Shown: positions 9,001 through 15,000 of the stretch, piece by piece
How the letters are laid out: every line of letters begins with the position of its first letter
Position numbering within the stretch: position 1 is the stretch's first letter
DNA from: an uncultured archaeon
GTDB lineage: Archaea > Iainarchaeota > Iainarchaeia > Iainarchaeales > 1-14-0-10-31-34
Assembly (NCBI GenBank): GCA_964442255.1
Contig: CAYTYC010000005.1
Span: forward strand, 1 to 60,809
Direction: 5' to 3'
Length of the DNA: 60,809 bases
Position numbers: made by a program

Positions 9001-12000
9001 GCGACGGCAATAAAGGAATGCGTGAAAAAAAGAAATTCATGGGTAAAAGAAAAAATGGATTTGCCGCTTGTGGTGGAAGCAAAATTTGAGGGCATTTCAA
9101 AAACAAAAGAAGTGAACGAAAGCCTTTCCGCCCTGCATTTGCTGGACGGAGTGGAAAACGCGAAAAAAAAGAGGCAAATCCGCGCAGGAAAAGGCAAAAA
9201 AAGGGGAAGAAAATACAAGAAAAGGAAATCTTTTTTGGTTGTCACCGGCGGAAAGGCGGAGGTTTTCAGGGCGGCAAGAAACCTGGAGGGAGTGGAAGTC
9301 GTTGAGGCGGGAAACCTGAACGCGGAACTCCTTGCGCCGGGGGCTGAAGCCGGAAGGCTGACGCTTTGGACGGAAAACGCATTGAATGCATTGAAGGGAA
9401 AAGGTGTGAAAGTTGAAAAAAAGTGAAAGAAAGCCCGCAAAAAAGGGAAAGAAAAGAACCGCAAAACACGCAAAAAAGGGGAAAACGGAAAAGGGAAAAG
9501 TGAAGAAAGCGGAGAAAAAAAGGCCCACGGAAAAGGGTTCAAAGGAAAAAGAAAAAACAAAAGAGAAAAGCAAGGCGGAAAAAAAGGAAAAGAAAACGGT
9601 TGACATTGCGGGAAGGCTTAAGGACTACGAAATTCTTTGGCATCCCCTGATATCGGAGAAGGCAATGAACGCGATTGAGGCCGAAAACAAGCTGACATTC
9701 ATTGTAAGCAGGAAGGCCTCAAAAGAAGAGGTAAAAAAGGCGGTGGAAGGGCTTTTTGAAGTTAAGGTTGACTCGGTGAGAGTTTTAAAGGACATGAAGG
9801 GAAGAAAAAAGGCGATGGTGAAAATAAACAGGGAATTCAAGGCAGAAGACATCGCGACCAGATTAGGGGTGATCTGAATGGGAAAAAAATATTATCACCC
9901 ATGTTTTGGTCAACCTTTTATTGAAAAGGTTGCAGGGGTAATCTGAATGGGAAAAAGAATCAAGTCACAGAAAGCGGGAAAAGGAAGCCCGACATTCAAG
10001 GCAACCCACAGGGCAAGGGTTGACCCAAAGTACAGGAATTACTCCGAAGAAGAAAAAAAAGGAATGCTGAAGGGTTCAATCACCGGAATATTGAATGATT
10101 TGGGAAACACTGCAACGCTTATGGAAGCCAGTTTTGATGGGAAAACGGAAACTATTATCGCCGCGGAAGGCGTTTTTGTTGGGCAGGAAATAAAGCAGGG
10201 GGCAAACGCGGACATGGCAATAGGGAACGTTGCCCCCCTGGGAAAGCTGCCTGAAGGGTGCCCTGTGTTCAACATTGAGCGGACGCCCGGAGACGGGGGC
10301 GCGTTTGCGAAGGGCTCCGGATTATACGGGTTGATTGTGACAAAAGACAGGAAAAATGTTTACGTGAAGCTTCCCTCCGGCTCAACCATTCCATTGAACC
10401 ACGAGTGCAGGGCGACAATCGGCTGCGCTGCAGGCGGGGGAAGAACGGAAAAGCCGATGGTGAAGGCGGGAGCGAATTACTTTAAAATGAAGGCTTTAAG
10501 CAGGCCCTATCCAAGCGTAAGGGGGGTTGCGATGAATCCCCCGGACCACCCTTTCGGGGGCTCGCAGCACCATCCCGGAAAATCAAAGAGCACGGCAAGA
10601 ACCGCTCCGCCGGGAAGAAAAGTCGGGGCGATTTCGTCAAAAAGGACCGGAAGGAAAAAAAAGAATTAAAGGCTTTGGCAAAAGGTGAAAGCACATGGTT
10701 GCAAAAAAAGAGTTTACTTTCAGGGGAAAAACAATGGACGAACTCAAAAAAATGAGCATTGAAGAGTTCGCAAAGCTGTGCAACGCGAGGGCAAGGAGAA
10801 GCCTGCAAAGGGGATTCAACAAAACCCTGGAAAAAAACATTGAAGACGCCATAAAAGTTGGAGGGGACGGAAAAAAGCCCAAAATCGTGAGAACCCATTT
10901 AAGGGACACAGTGATAATCCCGAAAATGGTGGGGCTGACTTTCCAGGTTTACAAGGGAAAAGAATGGGAAACCCGCACCATTGAACAGGAAATGCTGGGC
11001 CACTATCTCGGTGAACTGGCGTTGACCAGAAAAAGGCTTGTGCACGGAAAAGCGGGAATAGGCGCAACAAGGAGCAGCACCGCGATAACCGCAAGAGGCT
11101 GAATAAAATGAAAAGAGATTACTCAACCGAAATCATTAACCAGGAGCAAACCGCAAAGGCCTTGCTTGTAAACCAGCCGGCTTCACGGAAATACAGCGTG
11201 GAGATTGCGAGGGAAATACGGGGAAAAAAGGTTTCAAGCGCGGAAAAAAGGCTTCAGAAAATCCTTGAAAAAAAGGAGTTCCTTCCCTTGAGGAGATTCA
11301 ACAAAAAGGTTGCGCACAGAAAAGGAAACGCGAAAAGCAACGTGAAGTCCGGAAGATACCCCCAAAAAACGGTGAAAATTTTCCGGTCACTCCTGGGATT
11401 GGTGAAGGCAAACGCAGACTACAAAGGGCTGGATTCAGAAAACCTTTTGATAGAGCACATAGCGGCCTCGGAAGGCTTCAGCAGGGTTTCATACCAGTCC
11501 CAGGGAAGGATTGCCGGAAAAAGAAGGAAAAGAAAATCAACAAACCTGGAGATAGTCGTGAGGGAATCAAAGTGATTGAACGGAGTTTCGTTAAACAGGG
11601 AATCAAAAGGATTGAACTGGAGAAATACCTGAAAAGCAACCTGGAAAAAGCCGGCTTTACCAGGGCAGAATTAATGAAAACCCCGCTTGTCACAAGGATT
11701 GTGGTTAATGTTTCCAGGCCGGGGCTTGCGATAGGGAAAGGCGGGCAAAACATCAGGAAATTAACCGAAGAAATAGGGCAAAAATTCGGGATAGACAACC
11801 CGCAGCTGGAAATAAAGGAAATAGAGGTCCCGGAACTGGACGCGCAGGCAATGGCGGACAAAATGAAGAATCTGATGGAGCGCGGCTATTCTTGGAGAAG
11901 CGTGGCCTACAGGAGCCTCAGGGACATCACAAGGGCACACGCGCAGGGCGCGGAAATACTGCTTTCCGGCGCGCTTGCGGGAAAAGGCCAGAGAAAAAGA

Positions 12001-15000
12001 AAGCAAAGGATTGCGGAAGGGTACATGAAAAAAGTCGGGGACCAGACAAGGCTCGTGGACCGGGCAAAGGCAGACGCCTACACCAAAATAGGCGCAATCG
12101 GAGTAAAGGTAAGGATAGTCAAGCCGGGGGTCGTGTTCCCGGACAAGGTTGTTGGGAAAAAAATGCTTCCAAAAGAGCCGGAAGAAGAAAAAGAAGCTGA
12201 AGAAGAAGCGGAGGAAAAAGAAAAAAAGGAAGAAACCGGAAAGCCGGCGGAAGAAAAGGCGGAAAAGAAAGGCGGAACCAAAGGAAAGGAAGAAAACGGG
12301 CCCATAAAAAAGGAGGCAAAAGAAGGAAAAGAAAAAACAGGCAAAAAAACGGAAAAAAAGGAAGAGCCAAAAAAAGAAAACGGGAAAGAAAAAAAAGAAA
12401 AAGAATTGAAGGAAAAAAAGCCCGCGGAAAAAGAAGAAGGGAAAAAAACGGAAGAAAAAAAGGAAAGCCGGGGAAAAAAGCTTTTGCAAAAGGTTTTGCG
12501 CGGAAAAAAAGAGGAAAAAAAGTGATTTGAATGGCTTCAAGGGTGGATGAGTTAAGGGAAATGGGAAAAAGCGACCTGGAGGAAAGGCTGCTGGAATTGA
12601 GGGCAGGGCTTTCAAAGGAAAAGGCGCTGATAAGCTCGGGAACAAGGGCGGAAAACCCAGGAAAAATAAAGAAAATGAGGAGAATGATTGCAAGGATTTT
12701 GACGGTTATGCGGGAAAAAGAAACCGGAAAAAACGGGGTGAAAAAAGGAAAATGAACGAAGTTTGCCCGAACTGCGGGCTGCCCAAAAATTTGTGCGTAT
12801 GCGGGGAAATAGCGAAAGAATCGCAGAAAATAAAGATACGCACCGCAAGGAGAAGGTTCGGAAAAATAATCACAACCGTAACGGGGCTGGAAAACGAGGA
12901 AAGGGCGAAAGAGCTCGGAAAAATGCTGAAAAAAAGGCTTGCCTGCGGGGGAACCTTCAAGGAAAAAGAAATAGAGCTGCAGGGAAAGCACTCAAAAAAA
13001 GTCAAGGAAATACTGCTCAAGGAAGGATACAGGGAGGGGCAAATAGATGCTTGAAAGGAAAGGAAAATACCGCATTACGCGCGAAAACCTCGCAAGCCAC
13101 GAGCTCAACGGGCTGAAAACACTGGTTTTAAAATCAGCGGACGCAGGAAGAAAAAGGCAGGGAAAAATCGTGAAAGAAACAAAAAACACTTTTGTGCTGG
13201 AAACCGGGAAAGGAAAAGAAAAAATTTTCCCAAAAAAAGAATGCGAATTCGAGTTTTCCCTGGGAAAAGAAAAGGCAAGGCTGAACGGGAAAAGCCTTTT
13301 GTTCAGGCCCGAAGACCGGGTGAAAGAAAATTACGGAAAAATTGCGGGAGGAAACTTGAATGGCTGAATGCACCGACCCAAAATGCGCTGTCCACGGAAA
13401 AATAAAGGCAAGGGGAAACATTTTCACCGGAAAAGTGGAAAGCGCAAAATCCGACAAAACGGTTTCCGTTAAAAGGTTCCTAACGCACTACATCCCAAAA
13501 TACGAGAGACGCAAAAAAGTCGTTTCAGTAATCAGGGCCCACAACCCGGCATGCATAGGCGCAAAGGAAGGCGAATGGGTGAAGCTGGGGGAAACAAGAA
13601 AAATAAGCAAAACAAAAAGCTTTGTTGTGCTGAAAAAAATCACGAAAGAAGAGGAAAAAAAATGAAGGCAATGAGCGCATTTCCGGTGAAAAGCCTGAGC
13701 CAAAAAAGCAGGTGCGTTTGCGCGGACAACAGCGGGGCAAAAGAACTGGAAATAATAAGCGTGATAGGCTTCAAGACAAGGAAAAGAATGAACCCAAAAG
13801 CGGGGATAGGGGACATGGTTAACGTGGTGGTAAAAAAAGGAAAACCGGACATAAGGAAAAAAGTTGAAAGGGCAGTCATTGTGCGCGTGAAAAAAGAGTA
13901 CAGGAGAGGCGACGGCACAAGGGTTAAATTTGAGGACAACGCGGCGGTTTTAACCGACGACAAAGGCCTCCCCAAAGGCTCGGAAATAAAAGGCGCAATC
14001 GCAAAAGAAGTTGGGGAAAGGTTTCCAAAAATTGCGGGAATCGCTTCCGCAATAGTTTAAAAAGGCGGGAAAAAAAAAATGGAAAGCGGCAAGCCAAAAA
14101 AGCAGAGAAAAAAGGCCTTCACAGGAAAGCTCCACAAAAAAAAGAAATCCCTGCACGCAATGCTGGGAAATGCGCTGAGAAAAGAGTACGGAAAAAAAAG
14201 CGCCATGGTGAGGGCGGAAGACAAGGTCAAGGTTTTGCGCGGAAAATTCAGGGGAAAAGAAGGAAAAGTCACAAAGGCGCTTCACAAGAAAGGCACGGTA
14301 TTCATTGAAAAAATCACGCGAAAAAAATCCGACGGAACAGAGATTCAGGTGCCGATAAAAGCGTCCAACCTTATGGTAACCCAGCTTTTTTTGGACGACG
14401 AAAGAAGGCTTAAAAGGGCCGGAAGGAAAGGGAAAGGAAAAAAGGCTGAAAAAGGAAAAGAGGGGAAGTGAATGGCGAAAAAAGGCGAAAAGAAATCGGA
14501 AAAAAGGCTGGTGACCGCGAAAACAAGCAGGCTGTTGAGGAAAAAAAACAAGTGGGCGGCAAAAACAAGGTGCGGAACGCACAGGAAAAAGGACTCGGTT
14601 TCGCTGGCATATGTTTTAAGGGACATTTTGGGGGCGGCGTCAAACGCAAGGGAAGTGAAAAGAATACTGCATGAAGGCGCGGTGAAAGTGAATGGAAAGG
14701 CAAGAAGGGACAAAAACTTTTCGGTAGGGCTGTTCGACGTTTTAAGCATTGAAAAAGAAAACAAAAACTATCTTGCGGTGTACGACTCCAAAAGAAGGAT
14801 TGAATTGAAGGAAACTGGAAAAGAGCACGCAACATTCAGGCTTGCAAAGGCGGAATTCAAGAGAGCCGCAAAAAAGGGAAAAATACAGGTCACTGCCTCG
14901 GACGGCACAACGGTTTTCCAGGGAAAAGGAAAAATCTCAGGCGGGGACACGATTAAGCTGAAGCTTCCCGACAACAAGGTTCTTGGGGTCTATCCGCTGG

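Follow-up and report, generated by a model that had tools for sequence, protein, structure and literature searches.

The stretch of DNA analysed here (the window) covers 60,809 nucleotides of a contig from an uncultured archaeon of the order Iainarchaeales. It contains the conserved gene order uL22-uS3-uL29, namely: uL22 (11108-11575), uS3 (11572-12525) and uL29 (12531-12755). The uS3 gene lies on the forward strand, begins with GTG and encodes 317 aa, in which a 193-aa core with KH and S3_C domains is followed by a K/E-rich C-terminal tail of 124 aa (residues 194-317; 12151-12522, forward strand). Its identity is supported by Pfam matches to KH_2 (residues 15-87, 51.3 bits against a cut-off of 22) and Ribosomal_S3_C (residues 99-182, 59.2 bits against 34.1), and the top PDB matches are archaeal uS3 chains. 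The start is consistent with the invariant M1-I2-E3 seen in 30 relatives. Such a tail had been claimed in a preliminary description of this genome, and it does exist beyond the Pfam-supported core.

The uS3 tail consists of 43 K, 37 E, 2 R and 0 D among its 124 residues, and weak purine repeats run through its DNA (12171-12522). In an AlphaFold2 model based on 60 sequences, the core has a pLDDT >90, while residues 194-317 are at 47-52; no secondary structure is predicted in the tail, and DSSP assigns no helix past residue 192. Alignment of the relatives reveals no conserved positions in the tail, with no conserved columns past residue ~195. Single alpha-helix (ER/K) domains share the very high E and K content of the tails. 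As a candidate for the uS3 tail, such a helix was rejected: there is no i/i+4 pattern, Pro+Gly make up 18 of the 124 residues (14.5%), and the AlphaFold2 model shows low-confidence coil. Across the uS3 tails of relatives, no i+3/i+4 opposite-charge signal is found either (median z -0.88 with respect to shuffles).

Tails are also found on other ribosomal proteins (r-proteins) of the window, all encoded on the forward strand. At the C-terminus, they occur in uS4 (24228-24551, ~residues 160-267 of 267 aa, compared to 180-207 aa for sister-order open frames), eS6 (37733-38005, ~residues 121-211, net charge ~0; archaeal PDB chains have 125-136 aa and sister-order open frames 131-159 aa) and eS24 (40784-40978, ~residues 100-164; the Pfam S24e profile ends at 109). 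A C-terminal tail of ~95 aa in eS31 (41312-41599), rich in E/P/K/A/Q and following an S27a domain at residues 26-67 of 165, was missed by the earlier scan because it falls below the K+E threshold of 50%. At the N-terminus, K-dominant tails are carried by uL23 (9413-9631, ~residues 1-73; 29 K, 10 E, net +21; TTG start uncertain), which has 154 aa here and 83-90 aa in sister orders, and by eL32 (16914-17252, ~residues 1-113; 49 K, 20 E, net +33). Elsewhere, eL32 has 111-114 aa (sister order) or 125-130 aa (archaeal PDB chains, with one haloarchaeal chain of 240 aa). In the genome-wide comparison, LX gains ~20 aa, and its N-terminal tail has a net charge of +10.

The preliminary description also placed inserts inside the folds of uL3, uL18 and uL30. 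Alignment with sister orders shows that the uL3 insert exists, but as just a small K-rich loop of ~20-25 aa (7946-8000, forward strand, with a repeat at 7946-7990). The other two are ordinary-length proteins with a native K/E-rich segment: uL18 (18040-18636, forward strand), although flagged by the scan, has no insert there and only a ~25-aa C-terminal extension (relatives: median 192 aa, 2 of 51 flagged), and uL30 (19330-19767, forward strand), flagged likewise, is no longer than its orthologues (median 153 aa, 0 of 50 flagged).

The proteome was re-scanned for K/E stretches, defined as 40 aa with K+E of at least 50%, using the 1353 proteins delivered by a crude gene caller of our own. Such stretches occur in 49 proteins. 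Pfam was run on 341 of these 1353 proteins, namely every K/E hit plus small basic proteins, and identified 49 r-proteins, 18 of which carry a stretch (Fisher odds ratio 24, p 2e-15), namely the 16 named earlier together with P0/uL10 and uS12, whose N-terminus we take to be of normal length. With 59 r-proteins taken as the total and the earlier 16 alone counted, the test gives an odds ratio of 14 (p 2e-11). The strong enrichment among r-proteins is reproduced, and K/E stretches are present in all 16; only ~12 r-proteins, however, have long extra tails with respect to sister-order orthologues. These 12 tails are all terminal (10 C-terminal, 2 N-terminal), measure 45-125 aa each and sum to 1025 of the 8570 r-protein residues seen (12%). 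The view that the non-ribosomal carriers are mostly RNA- or ribosome-linked was overstated: 7 of 31 are RNA- or translation-linked (Rrp41, NFACT-R, Pth2, FtsY, CysRS, TRAM and ThiI), the others include the SMC and Rad50 coiled coils, DnaK, GrpE, AtpA, TBP, TopoVI-B and HerA, and ~10 have no family. Nop5 and fibrillarin of this genome were scanned and are absent from the K/E hits.

Tails of this kind could be mimicked by polypurine mis-assembly, frameshifts or over-long gene calls. Our gene caller did make two proteins too long (uL3, 14 aa; uL14, 37 aa), and polypurine DNA has no stops in any forward frame, so the N-terminal extents of uL23 (with its TTG), uS12 and LX hinge on the choice of start. 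We nevertheless give an artefact hardly any weight as a general explanation. In 79 independent assemblies, the C-terminal tails continue without a break from the conserved core until the first stop, the ATG of eL32 lies 18 nt downstream of the uL6 stop, and a contig from a second assembler, probably of the same sample, is identical over 10578-17146. Furthermore, the second codon position in the tails is 62% A and 14% G, so that the reading frame is visible.

Pooled over the 12 tails, K accounts for 33.5% of residues, E for 25% and A for 7.5%. Arg is depleted ~2.4-fold with respect to the cores (3.5% vs. 8.4%), and F+Y+W amount to 0.5% vs. 5.9%. All-purine codons are used for 343 K and 256 E vs. 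27 R and 69 G, which places the bias at the amino-acid level rather than simply in polypurine DNA. In the C-terminal tails, Glu is about as frequent as Lys, and the net charge is -2 to +11 over 70-140 aa.

This composition bears on whether the tails are directed at RNA, i.e. bind rRNA, mRNA or tRNA, be it to chaperone assembly, to stand in for rRNA that has been lost or r-proteins that are missing, or to help uS3 and uS4 capture mRNA. The strongly basic N-terminal tails of eL32, uL23 and LX would suit such a role, and uS3 and uS4, both of which we take to lie at the mRNA entry, each carry a tail of >100 aa. In addition, lysine-rich disordered KKE/D domains of yeast bind nascent rRNA (Dominique 2024, PMC11528048), and low-complexity regions rich in lysine have been interpreted as binding nucleic acids (Ntountoumi 2019, PMC6821194). 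The near balance of Glu and Lys, the depletion of Arg and the lack of conservation at tail positions argue against it, and the C-terminal tails do not have the strongly basic, K/R/G-rich and conserved character of rRNA-penetrating extensions. In eL32 and uL23, the N-terminal tails do have the basic character but lack sequence conservation among relatives. Nor is there any reduction of the rRNA: with 2986 nt for positions 1-2987, the 23S fills its model, and the 16S exceeds its own in length. We consider an RNA-directed function improbable.

Among 80 uS3 tails, 54% of residues are charged, the median net charge per residue is +0.013 and the spread of (pos-neg)/(pos+neg) is 0.093 vs. 0.142 in random draws, figures which come from non-independent relatives and, like those on retention given below, overstate the support. 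Charges are mixed more evenly than in shuffles (median z -1.66), with 0 blocky tails (z > 2). The tails are near-neutral polyampholytes in which the charges are well interspersed, and disorder is predicted for them. In the polymer physics of polyampholytes, even mixing disfavours self-association. This speaks against a reversible clustering in which interacting K/E tails would let idle ribosomes condense or hibernate, like KKE/D snoRNPs in stressed yeast nucleoli, as does the scarcity of aromatics and Arg. KKE/D domains do interact with one another and, together with RNA, form coacervates (PMC11528048), and many tails per ribosome would provide multivalency, but we consider clustering very improbable.

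Throughout the main clade of the order, such tails are the rule. A uS3 tail of at least 40 aa is present in 78 of 79 Iainarchaeales species, which are not independent of one another (median tail 105 aa; median whole protein 298-300 aa in 75-79 relatives), while its sequence and length shift, so that the earlier claim of tails kept yet variable is borne out. All 61 main-clade loci examined have a cluster tail load within 198-602 aa, with this genome no outlier (358 aa vs. a clade median of 363), as measured against f34, a baseline picked after its proteins had been seen to be short. Tails are absent from one sister order and shorter in other DPANN lineages. No correlation is seen between tail load and the K+E or K/(K+R) of the cores or their third-position purines (rho ~0, 88 loci), and a sister-order genome of equal GC (0.45) has plain-length proteins; composition bias is thus not the explanation.

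Turnover is very fast. Between species with 100% identical cores, tails differ by a 40-aa insertion or deletion, and at ~92% core identity tail identity is down to shuffle level. Every tail within the window contains degenerate purine repeats, and in one relative KEKDI is repeated perfectly in tandem (x9). Among relatives, the tails of uL1, eS6, uL24, uL29 and uS17 come and go; in uL1, many relatives have no tail and open frames range from 224 to 322 aa within the single family f1, a patchiness that fits tolerance as well as function. Tails are never found on uL2 (0/73), uS19 (0/77), uS8 (0/63), uL6 (0/59) or eS4 (0/66), as if only permissive ends carry them. These observations fit tolerated bloat, i.e. 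effectively neutral or slightly harmful slippage expansions in purine-rich, highly transcribed genes, without a function of their own, which drift has fixed in small populations of DPANN with reduced genomes and which are confined to harmless termini. We regard this as possible but rather unlikely. A length free to walk at random should often hit zero, whereas the uS3 tail is missing or short in one species only and every main-clade locus retains at least 198 extra aa. Arg, Gly and hydrophobics are low, charges are balanced and mixed beyond shuffles, and tail load has no tie to the purine or K/E bias of the cores. Moreover, r-proteins are the costliest proteins of a small cell, and it is in this most expensive and most highly expressed class that K/E stretches are concentrated (odds ratio 14-24).

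Single r-proteins with extended ends are known from solved ribosomes, while here a dozen are found in one ribosome. An archaeal ribosome with a 318-aa uS3 (PDB 9o17 chain AC) has its C-terminus extended as here, but by the alignment that tail is A/P/E-rich and not K/E-rich, and the 240-aa haloarchaeal eL32 (1jj2 chain X) is extended at the N-terminus like ours. Mosquito RpS6 and RpL23a reportedly carry histone H1-like lysine-rich extensions of low complexity (Hernandez & Fallon 2007, cited in PMC11764897); these are eukaryotic and independently evolved, and the likeness to the extended eS6 and uL23 goes by the title of the report alone.

We consider the tails an unusually heavy case of a kind already described, the low-complexity tails on prokaryotic r-proteins (Ntountoumi 2019, NAR, PMC6821194). 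According to that survey, which sampled 102 archaeal proteomes from UniProt with one representative per genus, low-complexity regions of r-proteins are frequent, made of A/E/K, mostly C-terminal and judged to be surface-located; recurrent archaeal carriers are S3, S24, L10 and L12, and FtsY and DnaK are listed too. The tails described here are likewise terminal, of low complexity and dominated by A/E/K. The survey gives an average region of 36 aa, ~0.07% of the archaeal proteome and mostly A/E, whereas this genome has at least 12 tails of 45-125 aa that are K/E-rich, near-neutral and order-wide. The eukaryotic KKE/D domains of snoRNP proteins (Dominique 2024, PMC11528048) resemble the tails in being C-terminal, disordered, composed of K and acidic residues and attached to abundant ribosome-related proteins. 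They differ in having lysine doublets or blocks, in binding nascent rRNA and in belonging to assembly factors, while the tails, though similar in composition, are evenly mixed, have a net charge of ~0 and sit on r-proteins. According to the same paper, archaeal snoRNPs have no KKE/D-type extensions.

Taken together, these results lead us to favour, at about even chances, a reading in which tails grown by slippage are retained by selection as a hydrated brush on the ribosome surface. The K/E stretches would be translated, disordered parts of r-proteins, attached at termini that tolerate additions and, judging by known ribosome structures, presumably face the solvent. The tails would be lengthened, shortened and turned over as their purine-rich coding DNA undergoes slippage and in-frame tandem duplication, while selection would keep their make-up fixed (K/E high, balanced and well mixed; Arg, aromatic and hydrophobic residues low) and maintain a minimum length of the uS3 tail across Iainarchaeales. 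The role would most likely be passive: a non-sticky hydrated brush that keeps the polyanionic ribosome soluble and also curbs unspecific sticking of the mostly positive cell proteins. An exception may be eL32 and uL23, whose shorter, K-dominant N-terminal tails could rest on rRNA. In this genome, 73% of the proteins with 80 aa or more have a net positive charge (median +6). Proteins with a positive charge have been found to bind to ribosomes and to move slowly by diffusion inside cells (Schavemaker 2017, PMC5726854). The data show that the tails exist, and they show their composition, predicted disorder, spread among relatives and rapid turnover through indels; the location at the surface, the selection and the function as a brush are inferred. 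As a counterpoint to selection, ongoing slippage of K/E-codon repeats could by itself regenerate a constant composition.

A stronger version of the brush reading is doubtful in our view. Here, the main Iainarchaeales clade would have evolved, and would retain through selection, a charge-neutral disordered brush of ~1000-1350 residues per ribosome as an adaptation of the ribosome to an overwhelmingly net-positive proteome. Tail sequence would drift freely while composition, charge balance and minimum length hold, and the brush would prevent basic proteins from coating the polyanionic surface of the rRNA unspecifically. The ribosome itself would thereby solve the limit that its surface properties set on proteome charge. 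The same ends, namely the C-termini of uS3, uS4 and eS6 and the N-termini of uL23 and eL32, have been extended repeatedly in Nanohaloarchaeota, Woesearchaeota, haloarchaea and insects; if this stronger version is true, they would represent universal permissive ports on the ribosome surface.

In practical terms, the tails inflate r-protein lengths, give rise to spurious mirror ORFs on the other strand and can interfere with the alignments behind DPANN phylogenomic trees. For the organism, ~12-16% of r-protein residues lie in disordered K/E tails that have no conserved sequence and yet are kept order-wide. If the tails are drift bloat, they would gauge how much waste an archaeon with a reduced genome puts up with in the genes it expresses most highly. 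If they are selected, they would provide a clear-cut example from nature of a function carried by nothing but composition and charge pattern, and would help to understand how ribosomes deal with a strongly basic proteome and at which surface sites they can be extended, sites that bear on the origin of eukaryotic r-protein extensions.

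The studied genome comprises 1.28 Mb in 51 contigs, and the main ribosomal protein gene cluster lies on the plus strand of the window, the entire 60.8-kb contig C5. In this cluster uS3 (11572-12525, plus strand), flanked by uL22 on one side and uL29 on the other, has a GTG start and encodes 317 aa with the Pfam domains KH_2 (residues 15-87) and Ribosomal_S3_C (residues 99-182). Its N-terminus agrees with the invariant M-I-E start found in 30 relatives. The long K/E-rich C-terminal tail ascribed to uS3 in the preliminary description is confirmed. It consists of the 124 residues past residue 193 (43 K, 37 E, 12 G, 6 each of P and A, 2 R; D is absent). 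AlphaFold2, run with a 60-sequence alignment, gives residues 194-317 a pLDDT of 47-52 and no secondary structure, and the core a pLDDT above 90. A contig of an independent assembly from the probable source sample is identical in sequence over 10578-17146; the assembled contigs compared also include numerous purine-rich joints that are spurious and stem from other organisms. Sequencing runs on record are three DNA runs of a single study, and no RNA run is listed.

Two minus-strand ORFs opposite the uS3 tail, 11761-12693 (310 aa) and 12119-12991 (290 aa), are rich in F, L, S and P and were rejected as genes. They are mirror images of polypurine DNA, which gene callers could mis-annotate. Elsewhere on the contig, the short ORFs 46794-47123 and 47268-47477 match positions 1-59 and 112-170 of the 288-position Beta_elim_lyase profile, and the pair appears to be one gene that is broken or frameshifted.

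Gene calling with a simple codon-score method yields 1353 proteins at 87% coding density; these calls are crude, and N-terminal extents vary with the start codon chosen. A K/E window (40 aa, K+E at least 50%) occurs in 49 of the 1353 proteins. Pfam scans covered 341 proteins, namely all 49 matches and small basic proteins, and 49 ribosomal proteins were identified among these 341. K/E windows are present in 18 of the 49 ribosomal proteins (Fisher odds ratio 24, p 2e-15), i.e. in all 16 carriers named previously and in uS12 and P0. If 59 ribosomal proteins and only 16 carriers are assumed, the odds ratio is 14 (p 2e-11), and the reported enrichment is thus reproduced at 14-24. Among the 31 non-ribosomal matches, 7 are RNA- or translation-linked (Rrp41, NFACT-R, Pth2, FtsY, CysRS, a TRAM protein and ThiI), and the rest include the SMC and Rad50 coiled coils, DnaK, GrpE, AtpA, TBP, TopoVI-B, HerA and about 10 proteins without a family. 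The earlier statement that such carriers are mostly RNA- or ribosome-linked is therefore too strong.

Three other proteins of this genome were noted. The 864-aa catalytic subunit of the A-type ATPase (C1:7143-9737; L001:7143-9734) carries an intein at residues 288-646 (Pfam Intein_splicing) and a C-terminal K/E tail of ~50 aa. In a single 299-aa ORF at C24:9797-10693 (L067:9797-10693), an RNase P Rpr2/Rpp21 domain (17-92) is followed by a dephospho-CoA kinase domain (106-281). Finally, a 105-aa ORF at C6:46614-46931 (L024:12614-12928), without a Pfam family, consists of tandem K/N/E/F-rich repeats with a unit of roughly KKGFNKKE.DKKEKHF.KENN.

As a length reference we used f34, a family of a sister order in the same class (four genomes, GC 0.45-0.58), with plain lengths of 221-238 aa for uS3, 83-86 for uL23, 111-114 for eL32, 321-333 for uL3, 191-196 for uL18 and 151-155 for uL30. 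Inserts inside the fold had been proposed for the last three. Alignment with f34 orthologues retains only the uL3 insert, a small K-rich one of ~20-25 aa in a variable loop; uL30 has no insert, and uL18 lacks one at the flagged place and is extended only at its C-terminus, by ~25 aa.

Long terminal additions are found on 12 proteins, at the C-terminus of uS3, uS4, eS6, eS24, uL16, eS19, eL31, uL1, eS8 and eL43 and at the N-terminus of uL23 and eL32. Sister-order open frames measure 180-207 aa for uS4, 131-159 for eS6, 221-235 for uL1 and 149-177 for eS19, against 267, 211, 321 and 238 aa here, and are a rough proxy only, because stop-to-stop frames overstate protein length (418 vs. 317 aa for uS3 of this genome). 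In uL16, eL31, eS8, eL43 and eS24, 47-70 residues follow the last residue that a full-length match to the Pfam profile covers. In solved archaeal ribosomes the chains are 186-229 aa for uS3, 125-130 for eL32 and 125-136 for eS6. The 12 tails total 1025 aa vs. 1592 aa of cores, and all K/E regions together 1356 aa; these two sums correspond to 12-16% of the 8570 residues counted over the 49 identified ribosomal proteins. In addition, eS31 (S27a; 41105-41602, 165 aa) has its zinc-ribbon domain only at residues 26-67 and a C-terminal tail of ~95 aa that is rich in E, P, K, A and Q and falls below the 50% K+E threshold.

The 12 tails contain 33.5% K, 25.0% E, 9.0% G, 7.5% A, 4.3% P, 3.5% R (8.4% in cores) and 0.5% F+Y+W. 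Their coding DNA is 73-88% purine, compared with 49-70% elsewhere in the same genes. It is not featureless polypurine: at codon position 2, A makes up 62% and G 14%, and among all-purine codons those for K (343) and those for E (256) are far more numerous than those for G (69) and R (27). In the 12 genes GAG makes up 28 of the 256 Glu codons of the tails and 32 of the 121 of the cores, and is thus avoided more in the tails, whereas the AAG share for Lys is the same in both; the tails of this comparison that lie in the window are at 12151-12522, 16914-17252, 24228-24551, 37733-38005, 40784-40978 and 9413-9631. A possible reason for the avoidance of GAG is that Shine-Dalgarno-like GGAGG or GAGG strings are kept out of long purine runs.

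The C-terminal tails are near-neutral (net charge -2 to +15), while the N-terminal tails of eL32 (+33) and uL23 (+21) are basic and may bind RNA. Across 80 uS3 tails, the median net charge per residue is +0.013 with 54% charged residues, the charge balance is tighter than in random draws (sd 0.093 vs. 0.142), and charges are mixed more evenly than in shuffled sequences (median z -1.66), with no blocky tail. The same 80 tails show no enrichment of the i/i+3 and i/i+4 charge pattern of single alpha-helices. On this result and on the coil predicted by AlphaFold2, the single alpha-helix reading was rejected.

All 30 loci of a first set, drawn from ~30 families of the order, have a uS3 tail, which measures 33-170 aa. 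Further relatives were collected by uS3 core alignment (80 of 138 loci kept, all Iainarchaeales), and other phyla were sampled through a 16S primer scan. In the 80 loci, K/E windows occur in uS3 (60 of 75 orthologues, median 300 aa), eL32 (33/53, median 213 aa), uL23 (26/68, median 135 aa), uL3 (19/60), uL24 (16/66, with no window in the studied genome), uL29 (9/71) and uS17 (9/67). They are absent from uL30 (0/50) and from uL2, uS19, uL22, uL4, eS4, uL5, uS8 and uL6 (none in 59-80 orthologues each); uL15 is not among these counts, and its query matched no orthologue. Among 79 distinct full-length uS3 proteins, the tail measures at least 40 aa in 78 and at least 80 aa in 63; lengths and sequences differ, which bears out the earlier description of tails kept yet variable across the order. 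Other tails are patchier. Within the order, eS6 open frames span 126-224 aa and those of uL1 214-324 aa (224-284 aa in the family of the studied genome), and uL1 is of plain length in each of the four outgroup genomes that gave a match.

For 12 proteins of the cluster, the length in excess of an f34 baseline was taken as the tail load; this baseline was picked after f34 was seen to be short. The studied genome, with a load of 358 aa, is typical of the main clade, since the median of 61 main-clade loci is 363 (198-602). Loads are 10-45 in f34 and ~240 in two further sister-order genomes. In f2 and f31, in-order families with small genomes, they are 130-300. For the phylum reached from a Woesearchaeota record the median is 143 (88-312; 10 genomes), and for Micrarchaeota the value is 96 (44-126; 5 genomes); several outgroup lengths are stop-to-stop frames, and the relatives do not count as independent. 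In one Nanohaloarchaeota genome, uS3 bears a K/E tail of 133 aa, uL23 measures 182 aa and uS4 has a long frame of 244 aa; one genome of the Woesearchaeota-reached phylum has a likewise long uS4 frame of 233 aa. In that phylum (L420-L429), uS5 is 251-309 aa, compared with 209-231 aa in the studied genome and its class, and uL22 reaches 232-246 aa in two genomes. DPANN lineages differ in which ribosomal proteins carry extensions.

Growth of the tails by slippage is well supported. Tandem Repeats Finder detects weak short-period purine repeats in every tail of the window, and a low-GC relative (L217, genome G105) has a perfect ninefold KEKDI tandem in its uS3 tail, a fresh slippage event. In 138 uS3 pairs with core identity of at least 80%, divergence is far more rapid in the tails than in the cores. 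An insertion or deletion of 40 aa in the tail separates two species whose cores are identical; at 98-99% core identity, tail identity is 44-69%, with length changes, and at ~92% it nears that of shuffled controls.

Composition bias as the driver was rejected: tail load is uncorrelated with K+E, K/(K+R) and third-position purines of tail-free core genes (rho about 0 over the 88 usable loci of 113), and a sister-order genome at the same GC is without tails. For load against GC, rho is 0.28. Compensation for rRNA loss was likewise rejected, given a full-length 23S rRNA (2986 nt, matching model positions 1-2987) and a 16S rRNA longer than its model. The 16S match (C17:1481-3155, locus L299) spans 1675 nt vs. 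1478 positions in the archaeal model and thus has ~200 nt extra (an insertion, expansion or intron). The spacer of this rRNA locus contains a tRNA.

Single long ribosomal protein tails are also present in solved archaeal ribosomes, and mosquito S6 and L23a reportedly have lysine-rich extensions. Passages of Ntountoumi et al. 2019 (PMC6821194) describe low-complexity regions as frequent in prokaryotic ribosomal proteins, A/E/K-rich, mostly C-terminal and surface-located, with S3, S24, L10 and L12 as recurrent archaeal carriers and FtsY and DnaK affected too. We found no description of K/E tails on ribosomal proteins of Iainarchaeota or Diapherotrites in the literature searched, with subscription journals outside its coverage. 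By comparison with these reports, the Iainarchaeales tails are a known phenomenon in a new form, which is of the K/E type, unusually heavy and spread over the whole order.

We favour selection on bulk properties, as suggested by the retention of the uS3 tail, the constant balanced composition, the avoidance of Arg and sticky residues, and the enrichment in the costliest proteins. Neutral tolerance of the tails is a strong rival, for which the patchiness of the non-uS3 tails and the very fast turnover leave room. Under selection on bulk properties, the tails together would form a passive surface brush on the ribosome. Disordered polyampholytes with well-mixed charges and a net charge near zero are expected to adopt an expanded form and not to stick. 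The proteome is highly charged and strongly basic: it has K 9.75%, E 8.57%, R 4.79% and D 4.02%, with (E+K)/(Q+H) of ~4.6, and of its proteins with 80 aa or more, 73% carry a net positive charge (median charge +6). Positively charged proteins bind ribosomes and lose mobility, according to passages of a published study (PMC5726854). For these reasons a passive brush is the reading we prefer, and we give the package as a whole, including the surface location and function that we infer, roughly even chances. More tentatively, the brush itself may limit the sticking of the organism's positively charged proteins to its ribosomes.
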